Assembly (NCBI RefSeq): GCF_055900595.2
Contig: NZ_CM148325.1
DNA length: 64,000 nt
Reading direction: 5' to 3' (one strand)
Shown: positions 2,788 to 38,840 of the stretch, piece by piece
How the letters are laid out: each line of letters starts with the position of its first letter
How positions within the stretch are numbered: the first letter of the stretch is position 1
Notes under the pieces: generated by a model
Seen by the model: only the letters and a program-made list of their open reading frames with translations
What the model was told of the DNA's origin: nothing
The model's database searches: none
Made by a program: the position numbers and the translations under genes

Positions 2788-3498
2788 ATGAAAAAATATT
2801 ATCCACTATTAACTGTAATTCTTCTTGGTTTACCTTTGTGCTCTCAGGCATTAACTCTTAATCTACGTGGGGGATACAGAAGCGCCAGTCACGCTTATGA
2901 AACGTTGATTCAGGTTAGTCAGGGGTGGAATAATGGTTGGTGGGCAAGTTTTGAGTCAAACACCTGGAATACAATTCACAACAATGAAAATGAATTGTTT
3001 GCACTCAATTATAATAAAATAGATATAAATAAAACATATAAAATAGATGACAAATGGGCTCTAATCCCAGGGATTCAGACACAATGGATGTCAGCAGGAA
3101 GTCAGTATAACCCTTATCTGAAAATTTCGTATCAGGCAACGCCAGATCTTAATCTGGCCTTACGCTATCGCTATGACTGGAAAGCTTTCCGACAGACGGA
3201 TTTAGATGGCAACAGGGCGCGTAATGATCAGCATCAGTTTGATGGTTATGTGACATACAAAATTAATGATTCATGGTTGTTTGCATGGCAGACCACGGTA
3301 TATACGAAGGTTAATAATTTCAAATATGGGAATCATAAAAAAACAGCAACTGAAAATGCATTTGTTCTGCAATATAAAATGTCACCGGTGTTCACCCCAT
3401 ATATAGAATATGATTACTTGGATAAACAAGGGGTGTATAAGGGGAAAGATAATAAACATGAAAATAGTTACCGTGTCGGTGTTCTGATTAATTTTTAA
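2788..3498 (+). CDS. nanC: NanC-like outer-membrane N-acetylneuraminic acid channel (KdgM porin family)
   Basis: About 236 aa, signal peptide MKKYYPLLTVILLGLPLCSQA, aromatic-rich beta-strand pattern, C-terminal ..YRVGVLINF; GAGG before ATG 2788. Confidence 0.75.
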   Translation: MKKYYPLLTVILLGLPLCSQALTLNLRGGYRSASHAYETLIQVSQGWNNGWWASFESNTWNTIHNNENELFALNYNKIDINKTYKIDDKWALIPGIQTQWMSAGSQYNPYLKISYQATPDLNLALRYRYDWKAFRQTDLDGNRARNDQHQFDGYVTYKINDSWLFAWQTTVYTKVNNFKYGNHKKTATENAFVLQYKMSPVFTPYIEYDYLDKQGVYKGKDNKHENSYRVGVLINF

Positions 3499-7461: not shown

Positions 7462-7612
7462 ACAAGTTCAGGATATATCTACAGCTCTGACATGATTCTC
7501 TGAGAGACATGACGGAGTGGTTAGACTGGCCCCCTGAATCTCCAGACAACCAATATCACTTAAATAAGTGATAGTCTTAATACTAGTTTTTAGACTAGTC
7601 ATTGGAGAACAG

Positions 7613-7978
7613 ATGATTGATGTCTTAGGGCCGGAGAAACGCAGACGGCGTACTACACAGGAAAAGATCGCTATCGTTCAGCAGAGCTTTGAACCGGGAA
7701 TGACGGTCTCCCTTGTTGCCCGGCAACATGGTGTGGCAGCCAGCCAGTTATTTCTCTGGCGTAAGCAATACCAGGAGGGAAGTCTTACTGCTGTGGCTGC
7801 CGGAGAACAGGTCGTTCCTGCCTCTGAACTTGCTGCCGCCATGAAGCAGATTAAAGAACTCCAGCGTCTGCTCGGCAAAAAAACGATGGAAAATGAACTC
7901 CTTAAAGAAGCCGTTGAATATGGGCGAGCAAAAAAGTGGATAGCGCACGCGCCCTTATTGCCCGGGGATGGGGAGTAA
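7613..7978 (+). CDS. insC: IS2 transposase OrfA
   Basis: [29 protein letters not shown].. matches IS2 InsC as recalled. Confidence 0.9.
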
Positions 7979-8841
7979 GCTTCGTCAGCCGTTGTCTCCG
8001 GGTGTCGCGTGCGCAGTTGCACGTCATTCTCAGACGAGCCGATGACTGGAAGGACGGCCGCCGCAGCCGTCACACGGATGATACGGATGTGCTTCGCCGT
8101 ATACACCATGTTATCGGAGAGCTACCCACATATGGTTATCGTCGGGTATGGGCGCTGCTTCGCAGACAAACAGAACTTGATGGTATGCCTGCGATCAATG
8201 CCAAACGTGTTTACCGGACCATGCGCCAGAATGCGCTGTTGCTTGAGCGAAAACCCGCTGTACCGCCATCGAAACGGGCACATACCGGCAGAGTGGCTGT
8301 GAAAGAAAGTAATCAGCGATGGTGCTCTGACGGGTTTGAGTTCCGCTGTGATAACGGAGAAAAACTGCGGGTCACGTTCGCGCTGGACTGCTGTGACCGT
8401 GAGGCACTGCACTGGGCGGTCACAACGGGTGGCTTCGACAGTGAAACAGTACAGGACGTCATGCTGGGAGCAGTGGAACGCCGCTTTGGCAGCGAGCTTC
8501 CGGCGTCTCCAGTGGAGTGGCTGACGGATAATGGTTCATGCTACCGGGCGAATGAAACACGTCAGTTCGCCAGGATGTTGGGACTTGAACCGAAGAACAC
8601 GGCAGTGCGGAGTCCGGAGAGTAACGGAATAGCAGAGAGCTTCGTGAAAACGATAAAGCGTGACTACATAAGTATCATGCCCAAACCAGACGGGTTAACG
8701 GCAGCAAAGAACCTTGCAGAGGCGTTCGAGCATTATAACGAATGGCATCCGCATAGTGCGCTGGGTTATCGCTCGCCACGGGAATATCTGCGGCAGTGGG
8801 CCAGTGATGGGTTAAGTGATAACAGGTGTCTGGAAATATAG
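7936..8841 (+). CDS. insD: IS2 transposase OrfB
   Basis: 301 aa, DDE integrase fold; matches IS2 InsD as recalled. Confidence 0.9.
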
Positions 8842-9267
8842 GGGCAAATCCATTGTCAGCACCAACAATGTGGGCTGACATGATAAAGCTGTCTAGGAAA
8901 TCGTTCGCCTCCTCAGCGGACAATCCAAATGGTGATTGTCTCTGTTAAACGTTTATTTTGAAGGTCGACTGAATAAGGTGATGACGCTGTAGAATTTTTC
9001 ACGTGCCACAGAATTTTGAACGCTTTCTCTTACAATATTTCAATGTTTCTATCAGTATTCGCCGGAAGAAGTCATCGACCAAATCATCCCAGTCGTCTCG
9101 CACCACTGACCATTCATGGTTGACATGTGGTGGAAATCCGCTTCTACAGTAACCATTTTTTATTCGCAAAACCGAACACGCCATACGGATAGCTGTTAAC
9201 TGGCATGCCGAGGCAGTCGTTATTTATATTTAGTTTTGTCAATAATCTTTATTTTTTGTAAAAGGCA

Positions 9268-14188: not shown

Positions 14189-14344
14189 CTGGCAGACCAG
14201 ATTGCACAGAGATCACTCAGGTAACAGGCGAGATATTTCCTGATCGAGTTGAAGTATGCGATCTTCAATCTGCTCCAGATTCTGACAATAATGTTGAAAG
14301 CAATCTGTTGAGATAGCAGACCAAATGATTGAGCGAGTGTTAGT

Positions 14345-14869
14345 GATGACAAACGTATCCAGGTACTTCTTATCTCATGGTGTTTTGGTGGATTTCTTGA
14401 GGCGGCAGCCGGATACGGTACAGCGGTAGCAATCCCCATTGGTATACTGATTGCTCTGGGCTTTAACCCACTAAAAGCAGCGATTGCATCACTGGTTGCT
14501 AATACAGTCCCTACAGCGTTTGGGGCAGTAGGTATACCTGTCTCTGTACTTGCTGAACAAGTTAATTTACCTGTAACCACACTCAGCGGGACAATTATTC
14601 TTCAACTGGCACTGTTCAACATTCTGCTTCCTTTCGTCATCGTCGCGATTATCGGTGGTGGTATGAAGACTATACGAGGCGTTGGACTAATTACCCTGAT
14701 GTGTGGTGTCAGTACATTAATTCCCCAGTATCTGGTGGCTGTTAATCTTGGCGCGGAACTCCCGGCTTTCGCGGGTAGTCTTGTCAGTCTGATAGTAATA
14801 GTCTTTATGGCGAAAAACCGTAAAGAAAAAACCGCCCCTGAATTGGGGATGCGGACGATTTCCTAGACT
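14345..14869 (+). pseudogene. L-lactate permease (LctP family) internal fragment
   Basis: Translated frame gives ..SWCFGGFLEAAAGYGTAVAIPIG..LVANTVPTAFGAVGIP.. as in LldP/GlcA; truncated on both sides by IS sequences. Confidence 0.55.
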
Positions 14870-14875
14870 GCTTTA

Positions 14876-15910
14876 TTATGCCAGCCCACATTGTTGGCGG
14901 TACATTTCAGGGCTGACTGCACCCAGCGATAATTTTATACGCCGCTCGTTATACCATCTGATGTAAGCATCTACATGCTGCATGAACTTTTCTGGCGTGA
15001 TGCCCGACCATTTACGCCCATAATACATTTCCGTTTTCAGTCTGCCGAAAAAACCTTCGCATGCGGCATTATCAGGTGAACATCCTTTACGGGACATTGA
15101 GCGAATAAGACCTGCTGCATTCACTCTTTCCAGCCAGCCTGGCCAGCGATAATGCCCACCTCTGTCACTGTGTATCACCGGTCGTTCGCCAGCATTTAAC
15201 GTTTCGACAGCGCTATCCAGCATAGTGTTGACCAGCTCAGCATCGGGGCGTGTACTGAGAGACCAGCTAATAACTTTTCCATCGAAGCAGTCCACCACCG
15301 GTGACAGCCAGACTTTACCTGCAGGGAGTTGGAACTCCGTGATATCTGTCAGCCATTTCTGATTAGGTTGCTACGCCTTAAAATCTCTGGCGATAAGGTT
15401 ATCCGGAGCCGGTCCGATTTCTCCGCAATATGAGCTGTAGCGACGACGACGGTTACGGCTGACGACAAGCTGTTCCTCCACCATAAGTCTGCGTACAACC
15501 TTTTCTGATAGCCGCCCCCCCTCATGCCTGAGCATCGCATGCAGGCGACGATAGCCATAACACTGGTAATTACTGTTAAATATATCTGTCAGCATCGTAC
15601 GTATCGTGGCGTATTTATCACCGGCTTTCAGTGCAGCCCGGTGATAAAAATAACTGCTACGGGTAAGGCCCAGAACATGAAGTAATTCTGTCAGGGGATA
15701 TGTTTGCCTCAGGGCATCAGCGATCTTTGTTTTTTCTCTGTTGTTCAGGTGACTGATACTGATGCCCGGGTCTTTTTTTATGATTTCCTCCGCTTTTTTC
15801 AGAATATCCAGCTCCATCTGCCGGCGGCGTATTTCCTGATTCAGTCGGGCGACTTCCTCCCGCAACGCATCGCGTTCTGCCTCCAGGGAAGGTTCGTTAT
15901 GTTTACGCAT
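14876..15910 (-). pseudogene. IS3-family transposase OrfB interrupted by in-frame stop
   Basis: Two track ORFs (15371-15910, 14876-15298) are in the same frame, separated by TAG (..DFKA*QPNQKWLTDITEF..); DDE motif region HSDRGGHY present. Confidence 0.6.
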
Positions 15911-15946
15911 AGTCTGGTAAGCACTGTTGCCGATAATTTCATCTTT

Positions 15947-16408
15947 CTATTTATACAATACCGCACGACTGACACCAATACGCCTGGCGATCTCACTGGC
16001 TGATACTTGTCGTGTACAGAGTGCCATGACAGCCTGACGTTTGACTTCTGGTTCAAAGGGCGCAACCGGGTTGGCCTTACTGGTAAATATACGTCGTCTG
16101 TCGGGATAAAGTTCATTAACCCAGCGAGCGAGTACATCAGTGCAGGGATAACCCAGGGCTCTGCTGGTAAACGCCAGGCAGCAGCCGTGGTTAAGATAAT
16201 GTTCAACGGCAACCTGTTTTTGCTCATCGGAGTAACGGTGCTTATGACGAATGGATTCTTTTGCGCCACCACCTGCTTCCCATGAGCGGATCCAACGCCG
16301 CAGATTTCTTTTCGAAGGGTAGCCCAGTTCGCGTACGACGGGAGCCAGCTTCTTACCATATTTGAAATAAAGCTCAATGGCGCGGATTTTTTCTTCTTCA
16401 GTAAACAT
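15947..16408 (-). CDS. IS3-family transposase OrfA (HTH)
   Basis: Two HTH-like segments; precedes OrfB in the same element. Confidence 0.6.
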   Translation of the reverse strand: MFTEEEKIRAIELYFKYGKKLAPVVRELGYPSKRNLRRWIRSWEAGGGAKESIRHKHRYSDEQKQVAVEHYLNHGCCLAFTSRALGYPCTDVLARWVNELYPDRRRIFTSKANPVAPFEPEVKRQAVMALCTRQVSASEIARRIGVSRAVLYK

Positions 16409-16823
16409 GTTTTATCTCCTGAGAGTCCAGGAAATCGTCCGCATCCCCCAACGAGCTGCTGTTTAAATTCGGGAGGATAATTAGGGCAGCCTTTTCGCCT
16501 GCCGGGAGTCACATTTTTCTGCATATCTGACACTTTGGTTCCCACTACTTATTTGGTGGACACCACTTTGTCTAATTCGTCAGATTCTGACCAGACGGTT
16601 CAGGCTGTACGCTTACAGTTGTTCAGGAGTAATAGTCCAAAGTATCGGGAATTTTCCAGACAATCCTGATAATACGCTTATGAACATTACAACACGCTCA
16701 TGCGGAACCTGGATGGGGGAAGGAACGGTGAAGCTGTTAGCGAATGACTGGCGTTTGTATAAACGCCGGTCATGATGAATGATATTTCAGAATATACCTC
16801 GGGCTAAAATACCGGGACAGAGA

Positions 16824-36791: not shown

Positions 36792-36903
36792 AGATATGAT
36801 CATCACCTTACTGGAGTAAATCAGAGGATATGAGAGAGGACCTGCGTCTGATGAAAACATGTCAGGCAGTGTTCTGGCTTGCTGCCCCCGCCTGGATTTG
36901 CCC

Positions 36904-37809
36904 CTATATTTCCAGACATCTGTTATCACTTAACCCATTACAGGCCCGCTGCCGCAGATATTCCCGTGGCGAGCGATAACCCAACGCACTATGCGGATGC
37001 CATTCGTTATAATGCTCGAACGCCTCTGCAAGGTTCTTTGCTGCCGTTAACCCGTCTGGTTTGGGTATGATACTTATGTAGTCACGCTTTATCGTTTTCA
37101 CGAAGCTCTCTGCTATGCCGTTACTCTCCGGACTCCGCACCGCCGTGTTTTTCGGTTCAAGCCCCAACATCCGGGCAAACTGCCGTGTTTCATTAGCCCG
37201 GTAGCATGAACCATTATCCGTCAGCCACTCTACTGGAGACGCCGGAAGCTCGTTGCCGAAGCGGCGTTCCACCGCTCCCAGCATGACGTCCTGTACTGTT
37301 TCACTGTTGAAGCCGCCCGTAGTGACCGCCCAGTGCAGTGCCTCACGGTCACAGCAGTCCAGCGCGAACGTGACCCGCAGTTTTTCTCCGTTATCACAGC
37401 GGAACTCGAACCCGTCAGAGCACCATCGCTGATTACTTTCTTTCACAGCCACTCTGCCGGTATGTGCCCGTTTCGATGGCGGTACAGCGGTTTTTCGCTC
37501 AAGCAACAGCGCATTCTGGCGCATGATCCGGTAAATACGTTTGGCATTGATCGCAGGCATACCATCAAGTTCTGTTTGTCTGCGAAGCAGCGCCCATACC
37601 CGACGATAACCATATGTGGGTAGCTCTCCGATAACATGGTGTATACGGCGAAGCACATCCGTATCATCCGTGTGACGGCTGCGGCGGCCGTCCTTCCAGT
37701 CATCGGCTCGTCTGAGAATGACGTGCAACTGCGCACGCGACACCCGGAGACAACGGCTGACGAAGCTTACTCCCCATCCCCGGGCAATAAGGGCGCGTGC
37801 GCTATCCAC
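36904..37809 (-). CDS. insD: IS2 transposase OrfB
   Basis: 301 aa, near-identical to copy 1 InsD. Confidence 0.9.
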
Positions 37810-38132
37810 TTTTTTGCTCGCCCATATTCAACGGCTTCTTTAAGGAGTTCATTTTCCATCGTTTTTTTGCCGAGCAGACGCTGGAGTTCTTTAATCTGCT
37901 TCATGGCGGCAGCAAGTTCAGAGGCAGGAACGACCTGTTCTCCGGCAGCCACAGCAGTAAGACTTCCCTCCTGGTATTGCTTACGCCAGAGAAATAACTG
38001 GCTGGCTGCCACACCATGTTGCCGGGCAACAAGGGAGACCGTCATTCCCGGTTCAAAGCTCTGCTGAACGATAGCGATCTTTTCCTGTGTAGTACGCCGT
38101 CTGCGTTTCTCCGGCCCTAAGACATCAATCAT
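37767..38132 (-). CDS. insC: IS2 transposase OrfA
   Basis: Identical to copy 1 InsC in the track translation. Confidence 0.9.
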
Positions 38133-38840
38133 CTGTTCTCCAATGACTAGTCTAAAAACTAGTATTAAGACTATCACTTATTTAAGTGATATTGGTTGTC
38201 TGGAGATTCAGGGGGCCAGTCTAACGGTTTACGTTACGCCCTTAGCTACCTGGCTAAACAGGATCAGAAAGAACACGGTATTATTCTGATGCGTAGCAGA
38301 CTTCCCGAAAAAAGTAACCGCGGCCGACCACGACACAACTGAATTACAGCTGTATTAGAATTAAGTTTCCGTAAGTTGTTGGGAGGTGCTTGAGTTAATA
38401 GGCAGCAGAGGGGGCGCTGTAATCAGTGTAGGGGACCCGAATTTCTGCTGTGGTGCTTCAGTGGTTCGGATACAGGTAACGAATATGGTTCATAAATCTG
38501 ACAGTGATGAATTAGCAGCACTGAGGGAAGACATCACTTGAAGCTTATGGGATTGAATGGCGACGTAAACCGCAGAGTCCTGTGCAGTGCGTTTCCGTAT
38601 TATCCACGGATGAGAAAGTTGCGTTATTTCGTCGGTTGTTTCGTGGGCGTAGTGATGTATGGGGCCTTCGATGGGAAAGTAAAACTAGCGGAAAATAAAA
38701 GTACTCGCCTGCCTACGGACCTTTTTACTCAGGGTATTTTTGTTTTCCATAACGTTGCGTATTAACATGAAGGAGAACGAGGGGGATTAGGTAATCTCTT
38801 TCCATGAAAATACGCAAACGTTCATCACCGAAGTGAAAAA

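Follow-up and report, generated by a model that had tools for sequence, protein, structure and literature searches.

The window analysed here is a stretch of 64,000 nucleotides from contig NZ_CM148325.1 (NCBI RefSeq assembly GCF_055900595.2), in which a sequence-only reading had placed, at positions 14876-15910, an IS3-family OrfB gene broken by a single in-frame amber codon. The minus strand of this region carries a complete insertion sequence with inverted terminal repeats, whose transposase is encoded by one reading frame with two internal TAG codons and whose right end cuts a gene for L-lactate permease. Its features are as follows.

14844-16449, minus strand: IS3-family insertion sequence, complete copy of 1606 bp with inverted terminal repeats, its ends taken from six copies in different flanks
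16424-16449, minus strand: left terminal inverted repeat (IRL), GGGGGATGCGGACGATTTCCTGGACT
14844-14869, minus strand: right terminal inverted repeat (IRR), the reverse complement of which is TGGGGATGCGGACGATTTCCTAGACT
14876-16408, minus strand: single transposase reading frame, read by translation from the ATG at 16408 to the TAA at 14876-14878, 511 codons with two internal TAG
15947-15949, minus strand: first amber codon, codon 154, TGG to TAG (G to A), in ..AVLYK*KDEII..
15371-15373, minus strand: second amber codon, codon 346, GAG to TAG (G to T), in ..RDFKA*QPNQKW..
15056-15346, minus strand: codons of the DDE triad, D355 (15344-15346), D415 (15164-15166) and E451 (15056-15058), which are invariant columns in relatives
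14340-14843, plus strand: L-lactate permease gene fragment cut by the right end of the IS, from the open reading frame list; RefSeq annotates the identical locus as 'L-lactate permease, incomplete'

The length of the element fits that of 1.6-kb, IS-only contigs of relatives, in which the coding sequence starts about 41 nt from the end. IRL and IRR are 26-bp repeats, identical at 24 of 26 positions. The right end of the IS is CA, and the dinucleotide at the left end is GG in the window, TG in the copies that we designate L002, L094 and L095, and AG in L001. At position 16449, the minus-strand 5' terminal base of the IS, the window thus has G where L002, L094 and L095 have T; this T-to-G change breaks the TG...CA terminus and may be an additional inactivating lesion, or the G may be a mere base of the flank. 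Plasmid annotations, protein-cluster names and RefSeq products gave the element no other name than 'IS3 family transposase'. The frame of the permease fragment continues into the IS, ending ..PELGMRTIS*. The two flanks are mutually unrelated, with lactate permease on one side only, and no direct target-site duplication of 3-4 bp was found at this copy, where the sequences ..CTCGTT and ATTCAG.. flank the IS without a repeat. The missing duplication fits a later rearrangement beside the IS and would be a trait of the window copy, not of the element.

Pfam searches with the window translation returned rve (3.6e-18), rve_2, rve_3, HTH_Tnp_1, HTH_21 and HTH_28. The intact homologue scored 428.9 bits against NCBIfam NF033516 (transpos_IS3), for which the cut-off is 160. 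This profile covers residues 121-504, leaving outside it the first ~120 residues (HTH_28), which form an extra N-terminal HTH module.

The minus-strand open reading frame 15371-15910 stops at a TAG, and the same frame then goes on to 14876-14878 (..IARDFKA*QPNQKWLTDITEF..). As the intact reference we used the copy of E. coli FDAARGOS_1251 (L001:1541-3073), annotated as the plain 510-aa CDS WP_001608690.1, and the alignment to this intact RefSeq copy stood in for an ISfinder alignment. The window frame is collinear with it; the two share 97.8% of their nucleotides across 1528 aligned nt, and the alignment needs no indel. Since both halves align to an intact transposase gene without an indel, the frame that they share is not due to chance, and the sequence-only reading was right that the TAG at 15371-15373 parts two same-frame pieces of a transposase. 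Two other elements of that description had to be revised. First, the name OrfB does not apply, because one undivided frame runs from 16408 to 14876 and there is no separate OrfB; the 15371-15910 fragment begins in the leucine-zipper/HTH_Tnp_1 part, which corresponds to the zipper region of OrfA in classical IS3 elements. Second, the amber codon is not alone: a second in-frame TAG lies at 15947-15949, 37 nt outside the interval originally described. This upstream TAG, at codon 154, removes the invariant Trp of the LYKW motif in the second HTH. Ribosomes that begin at the normal ATG would stop after 153 residues, so that the codon 154 TAG would by itself be enough to truncate the product. The DDE triad is intact, with K458 seven residues past E451, yet lies 3' of both stops, and the window copy would accordingly be unable to make any transposase with a DDE domain.

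Five other E. coli copies, including a fully intact one, were compared at these codons; none has either amber codon, and they read TGG at codon 154 and GAG at codon 346. In full-length relatives of 55-98% identity, column 154 is Trp in 106 of 106, and column 346 holds a variable sense residue (A 61, T 8, G 8, C 7, E 6 and S 6); these 106 relatives were retrieved as called proteins and are stop-free by construction, so that the argument rests on the residues found in the two columns and on the comparison of copies at the DNA level. Other copies are broken elsewhere. L005 carries TGG to TAG at codon 43, L008 four TAA or TGA stops at codons 266, 312, 329 and 467, and L007:348-1867 (pCFSAN004178P_02) a 1-nt deletion at gene nt 66 together with a 12-nt deletion at nt 727-741, while L002 has lost one nucleotide in an A run. 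As these lesions differ in place and kind among the copies and no stop is conserved, we conclude that single copies decayed independently; the point-mutational decay first proposed for the downstream TAG is thereby supported. Relative to the intact copy, the window copy shows 22 synonymous, 10 non-synonymous and two nonsense codon differences. The excess of synonymous changes indicates that most of the 2.2% divergence arose under purifying selection, before the window copy died.

Any single-base feature raises the generic worry that it is a sequencing or assembly error in one sequence, although nothing specific points to such an error here. Counted as exact 61-mer matches rather than by genome-by-genome inspection, the sequence centred on the codon 154 TAG is present in 602 records of complete E. 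coli genomes and that centred on the codon 346 TAG in 617. Identical 61-mers in so many independent complete-genome records exclude a sequencing artefact. Moreover, many strains, Nissle 1917 and ST131 isolates among them, share the entire IS at 99.9-100% identity. We give the error explanation a vanishingly small probability. On the identical locus, RefSeq/PGAP has the label 'IS3 family transposase, pseudo, internal stop': the pseudogene itself is thus already known, and the window copy is exactly a case of the 'internal stop' IS pseudogenes that RefSeq/PGAP marks in pathogenicity islands, with no relevant difference.

A second explanation is that the amber codons are decoded, by programmed read-through or natural suppression, to provide a low, regulated level of transposase. 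Both stops are TAG, the frame is open across both and the DDE triad is intact. In addition, the TAG at codon 346 is followed by CAA, which superficially resembles leaky UAG-CAR contexts. Such leaky stop contexts are known from plant viruses. Two successive read-through events would be needed, however, and insertion of Gln or of another near-cognate residue would not restore the invariant Trp154. The sequence-only reading had itself named read-through as the finding that would speak against decay, and the comparison of copies goes the other way, since neither stop is conserved, the other E. coli copies having TGG and GAG at these codons. Other copies are broken elsewhere by TAA, by TGA and by indels, and the genomes with one and the same junction between IS and flank are at least as many as the TAG alleles. 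The literature covered describes frameshifting and transcriptional slippage in IS elements, and we came across no account of stop read-through in it. The recoding-type signal of the family, a -1 frameshift cassette treated below, lies ~400 nt upstream of the codon 346 TAG and is not a stop codon. Read-through thus appears very improbable.

How the two stops spread can be read from the locus. A 65-nt probe over the junction between the IS and the L-lactate permease gene matched 676 genomes, 653 of them over at least 80% of the probe length. Nearly all matches were chromosomal, with a median of one per genome. The IS is present in ~1,600 E. coli genomes. Sequence matching it in any allelic form was found at a median of one place per genome, and the TAG allele is restricted to one orthologous locus, present about once per genome. 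The agreement between the counts of TAG alleles and those of junction-bearing genomes argues for one ancestral insertion, two substitutions and vertical inheritance. In a 100%-identical genome (strain U1), the element has iucABCD-iutA, sat, iha and the nan cluster as neighbours, with tRNA-Phe and an integrase upstream of them; this host region, the pheV island of extraintestinal pathogenic E. coli, is rich in truncated transposases. In the history that we propose, the IS would have inserted once into an L-lactate permease gene of the pheV pathogenicity island (iuc/iutA-sat-iha). Two base substitutions would then have created the premature amber stops at codons 154 and 346, and the copy would afterwards have been passed down vertically with the island.

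The persistence of the locus in ~650 genomes invites another reading, in which the 153-residue N-terminal HTH fragment has been retained as a domesticated, trans-acting, OrfA-like inhibitor that would, for example, bind the inverted repeats of intact copies and damp their transposition. The first 153 codons are open, the start codon and the upstream IRL region are kept, and the fragment holds HTH_28 and part of HTH_Tnp_1; OrfA-type proteins of the IS3 family are known regulators (2016 recoding review). However, recent common descent of the island, in which the copies are 99.9-100% identical, fully accounts for the retention. The fragment ends at the invariant Trp within the second HTH, without the leucine zipper needed for multimerisation, and some genomes have lost parts of the copy. 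We therefore consider such a role unlikely, if somewhat less remote than read-through. Taken together, these results lead us to hold with high confidence that the element at 14844-16449 is a dead IS3-family copy, derived from one insertion and two independent amber substitutions and inherited vertically with its island. No evidence against this explanation was found, and the copy shows no sign of later movement.

The surrounding island shows further traces of IS activity. Strain U1 (L004:19232-20000) carries an IS1 directly at the left end of the IS (~16450), which is absent from the window; otherwise the two sequences are 99.95-100% identical. The presence of this IS1 in U1 and its absence from the window indicate that the island is still being reshaped by other IS elements. 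Another IS3-family transposase in the same island of U1 (L093:20995-22208) is annotated 'programmed frameshift; internal stop' and has an AL1L pseudoknot feature. This pseudogene is probably the IS629-like element that the sequence-only reading had cited as a companion case of decay, a parallel that is plausible. The broader suggestion that several IS copies of the island are decayed agrees with the RefSeq annotation of the matching genome, which lists a second IS3 pseudogene with an internal stop and many truncated transposases. Elsewhere in the window, positions 8862-8915 on the plus strand match the last 54 nt (the right end) of the IS at 88.9% over 54 nt. This match lies just past a 1.33-kb IS3-family element at 7520-8852, whose second copy is at 36893-38225, and may be the solo end of a related IS.

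We then considered the family to which the copy belongs. Protein searches returned almost only undivided proteins of ~510 aa, from many genera, an organisation that is uncommon among IS3 elements. The nucleotide set comprised 84 loci, 80 from a scan of one genome per species and four from direct look-ups, and spanned Gamma-, Beta- and Alphaproteobacteria, Firmicutes, Spirochaetes, Acidobacteria and others. Within the transposase gene of these loci we found two conserved nucleotide features, which in the window lie at the following positions.

15773-15779, minus strand: slippery heptamer A_AAA_AAA, in the zero frame ATA AAA AAA GAC, codons 210-212
15712-15767, minus strand: stem-loop starting 5 nt 3' of the heptamer, with arms at 15757-15767 (GGGCATCAGTA) and 15712-15722 (CGCTGATGCCC), the 3' arm holding the TGA that closes the -1 frame

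In 69 of 81 loci, 495 codons or more can be read without a stop in the frame that passes through the heptamer site. The possibility that a split orfA/orfB organisation is ancestral and that the fused copies are mutants was rejected, as these 69 of 81 relatives are undivided and come from many phyla. The motif T-AAAAAAA-G, in the zero frame NTA AAA AAA GNN, is present in 81 of 84 loci and A_AAA_AAG in one more, so that 82 of 84 have a heptamer. Elsewhere in the genes of these relatives, 37% of Lys codons are AAA, and 14% of Leu, Ile and Val codons end in A. From the codon usage of each gene, the heptamer would be expected in about 3 of 81. A per-codon scan of synonymous entropy over 70 full-length genes had its gene-wide minimum at codons 210-216 (0.27, against a mean of 0.82), with a second dip over the 3' arm of the stem.

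The stem is conserved as well. In the window copy 10 of its 11 pairs are formed, and the window fold has a z of -2.28. Across 81 aligned relatives the 11-bp stem is conserved with covariation, and six pairs show compensatory changes. Pair 26-76 is AU in 41, GC in 34 and GU in 7, with none broken, and pair 31-71 is CG in 34, UA in 31 and UG in 14. Pairing holds in 98% of all cells of the stem; with the partner shifted by 1-3 columns it falls to 21-49%, and none of 500 shuffles attained the observed value. In one covarying pair, position 1 of an Ile/Val codon is matched with position 3 of an Asp codon, so that protein constraint cannot explain the covariation. Of 67 loci scored downstream of the heptamer, 46 have a -1 frame that stops after 18 codons, at a TGA of the 3' arm, and 43 have a +1 frame that stops after 8. 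As a candidate Shine-Dalgarno-like stimulator, the sequence GGAGG lies upstream of the heptamer in the E. coli copies; inspection by eye of the short stretch that precedes the heptamer in the aligned betaproteobacterial sequences showed none, and we claim no such element for the family. In the window, heptamer and stem lie downstream of the codon 154 TAG, and the cassette is irrelevant to the dead copy itself.

A heptamer spaced by 5 nt from a GC-rich stem is the signature of bacterial -1 ribosomal frameshifting. If it acts in this way, standard decoding of the one undivided reading frame would yield the full transposase, and the heptamer and hairpin (15712-15779 in the window) would divert some ribosomes into the -1 frame, where translation would end 18 codons on. 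The predicted truncated product, of about 230 residues (212+18), would end ..IIKK-RSGHQYQSPEQQRKNKDR; it would comprise the HTH and zipper parts, be the equivalent of OrfA and regulate transposition. Such an arrangement would be the inverse of the one known from IS3 elements. Classical members of the family in E. coli (IS600, IS911, IS150, IS2 and IS3) share with this clade the rve DDE domain with K at +7, an N-terminal HTH and leucine zipper, inverted repeats of ~26 bp (with the ending TG..CA in part of the copies compared), a length in the 1.2-1.6 kb range and a slippery heptamer followed by a hairpin; IS600 uses the heptamer A_AAA_AAA with a stem-loop. By contrast, the clade has one 510-aa frame (69 of 81 relatives and the intact E. 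coli copy) in place of the orfA/orfB split, and has the additional ~120 N-terminal residues with HTH_28. The classical layout, with orfA and an orfB in the -1 frame fused by frameshifting, was not what we found, for the cassette sits inside a single open reading frame, and a -1 shift at its heptamer would shorten the protein, not extend it.

The proposed layout would parallel that of E. coli dnaX (tau/gamma), in which standard decoding also gives the full product, a heptamer of lysine codons is followed by a close 3' hairpin, and the -1 frame soon stops. The two differ in that dnaX has A_AAA_AAG with an upstream Shine-Dalgarno-like stimulator and an experimentally proven frameshift, whereas the clade has A_AAA_AAA, an 18-codon tail and a predicted shift. 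In the literature searched, with ISfinder outside its scope, we found no description of an inverse arrangement in which an IS3 frameshift shortens the product. The window element is absent from the eight IS clusters of Sharma et al. 2014, in which the product is longer in every IS3-family cluster and 'shorter' in a single IS cluster, insB of IS1. The 2016 recoding review treats IS frameshifting of the fusion type only, and a passing remark in the IS1447 paper states that 'no' frameshift is required in some relatives. The joint claim, that the cassette of this clade recodes in this inverse, dnaX-like manner to make a short OrfA-like regulator and that it is undescribed, is one that we advance tentatively and judge rather less probable than its negation.

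The cassette may instead act in one of two other ways. It may be a translational pause favouring action in cis, which was proposed for IS911 (2016 recoding review), or it may promote transcriptional slippage. IS1447/IS120, of an IS3 subgroup with +1 transcriptional slippage on A9, corresponds formally to the rare A9 variant of L002, which likewise needs one extra A to restore the frame; unlike the clade, IS1447 has an OrfAB of ~383-400 aa and TA termini and belongs to a different subgroup.

The A run of the heptamer varies among E. coli copies. The window and L001 have the A7-GAY form. Enterotoxigenic E. coli have an in-frame A10 form (IIKKKPG; L094:1101-1164 and L095:1101-1164), often in several copies per genome. 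An A9 form (L002:2144-2206), found in 8 records, is out of frame and carries the PGAP label 'programmed frameshift'; it is one base short of the in-frame A10 lineage, a loss that may be a real slip mutation or a homopolymer assembly error. Under the proposed mechanism, such one-base changes of the A run (A7G, A10 and A9 in E. coli) could switch the main product between the transposase and, as in the classical design, a short OrfA-like protein. A copy from Pseudomonas marginalis (L060:~1030-1045) reads ATA AAA AAA TAG, in which a G-to-T change has put a stop directly after the heptamer, and is another independently killed copy. We also considered whether the label 'programmed frameshift' could serve as evidence of a classical split orfA/orfB, and rejected this, as the frame of L007 breaks at nt 66, far from the heptamer, and the break in L002 amounts to A9 against A10 in a homopolymer. 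On sequence grounds the label on L007 looks like an annotation artefact, neither of its deletions being near the slippery site.

Three of these copies have a peculiar setting. In L094 (~450-480 and ~2060-2090), in L095 (at the same positions) and in L002 (~1470-1500 and ~3105-3135), the 1.6-kb IS lies inside an imperfect palindrome of ~57 bp, laid out as TGTCAACGCCAAGATTATTGGCCGTTT / IS / TTACTGTCTTATATCATTGGCGCTGACA. Direct repeats of 4 bp (CATG, CCTT and TGGT) border the palindrome in three unrelated targets, and the IS core of L002 is oriented, relative to the outer palindrome ends, opposite to that of L094 and L095. The palindrome might be a type of target that the IS prefers, might itself form a small mobile shell, or might reflect an inversion between the inner inverted repeats. 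The window copy has no palindrome shell.

In conclusion, the window copy adds one more decayed IS to the pheV island of extraintestinal pathogenic E. coli and matters little in itself. At most, its two diagnostic SNPs and one junction provide a stable clonal marker, present in ~600-650 of 5,426 complete genomes. For annotators, the survey carries a warning that PGAP applies 'programmed frameshift' to some mutated copies whose frame break is far from the slippery site. The cassette, conserved in a widespread IS3 clade, may matter more than the dead copy: if it works as proposed, these elements would set the ratio of transposase to regulator by frameshifting out of the catalytic domain, not into it.
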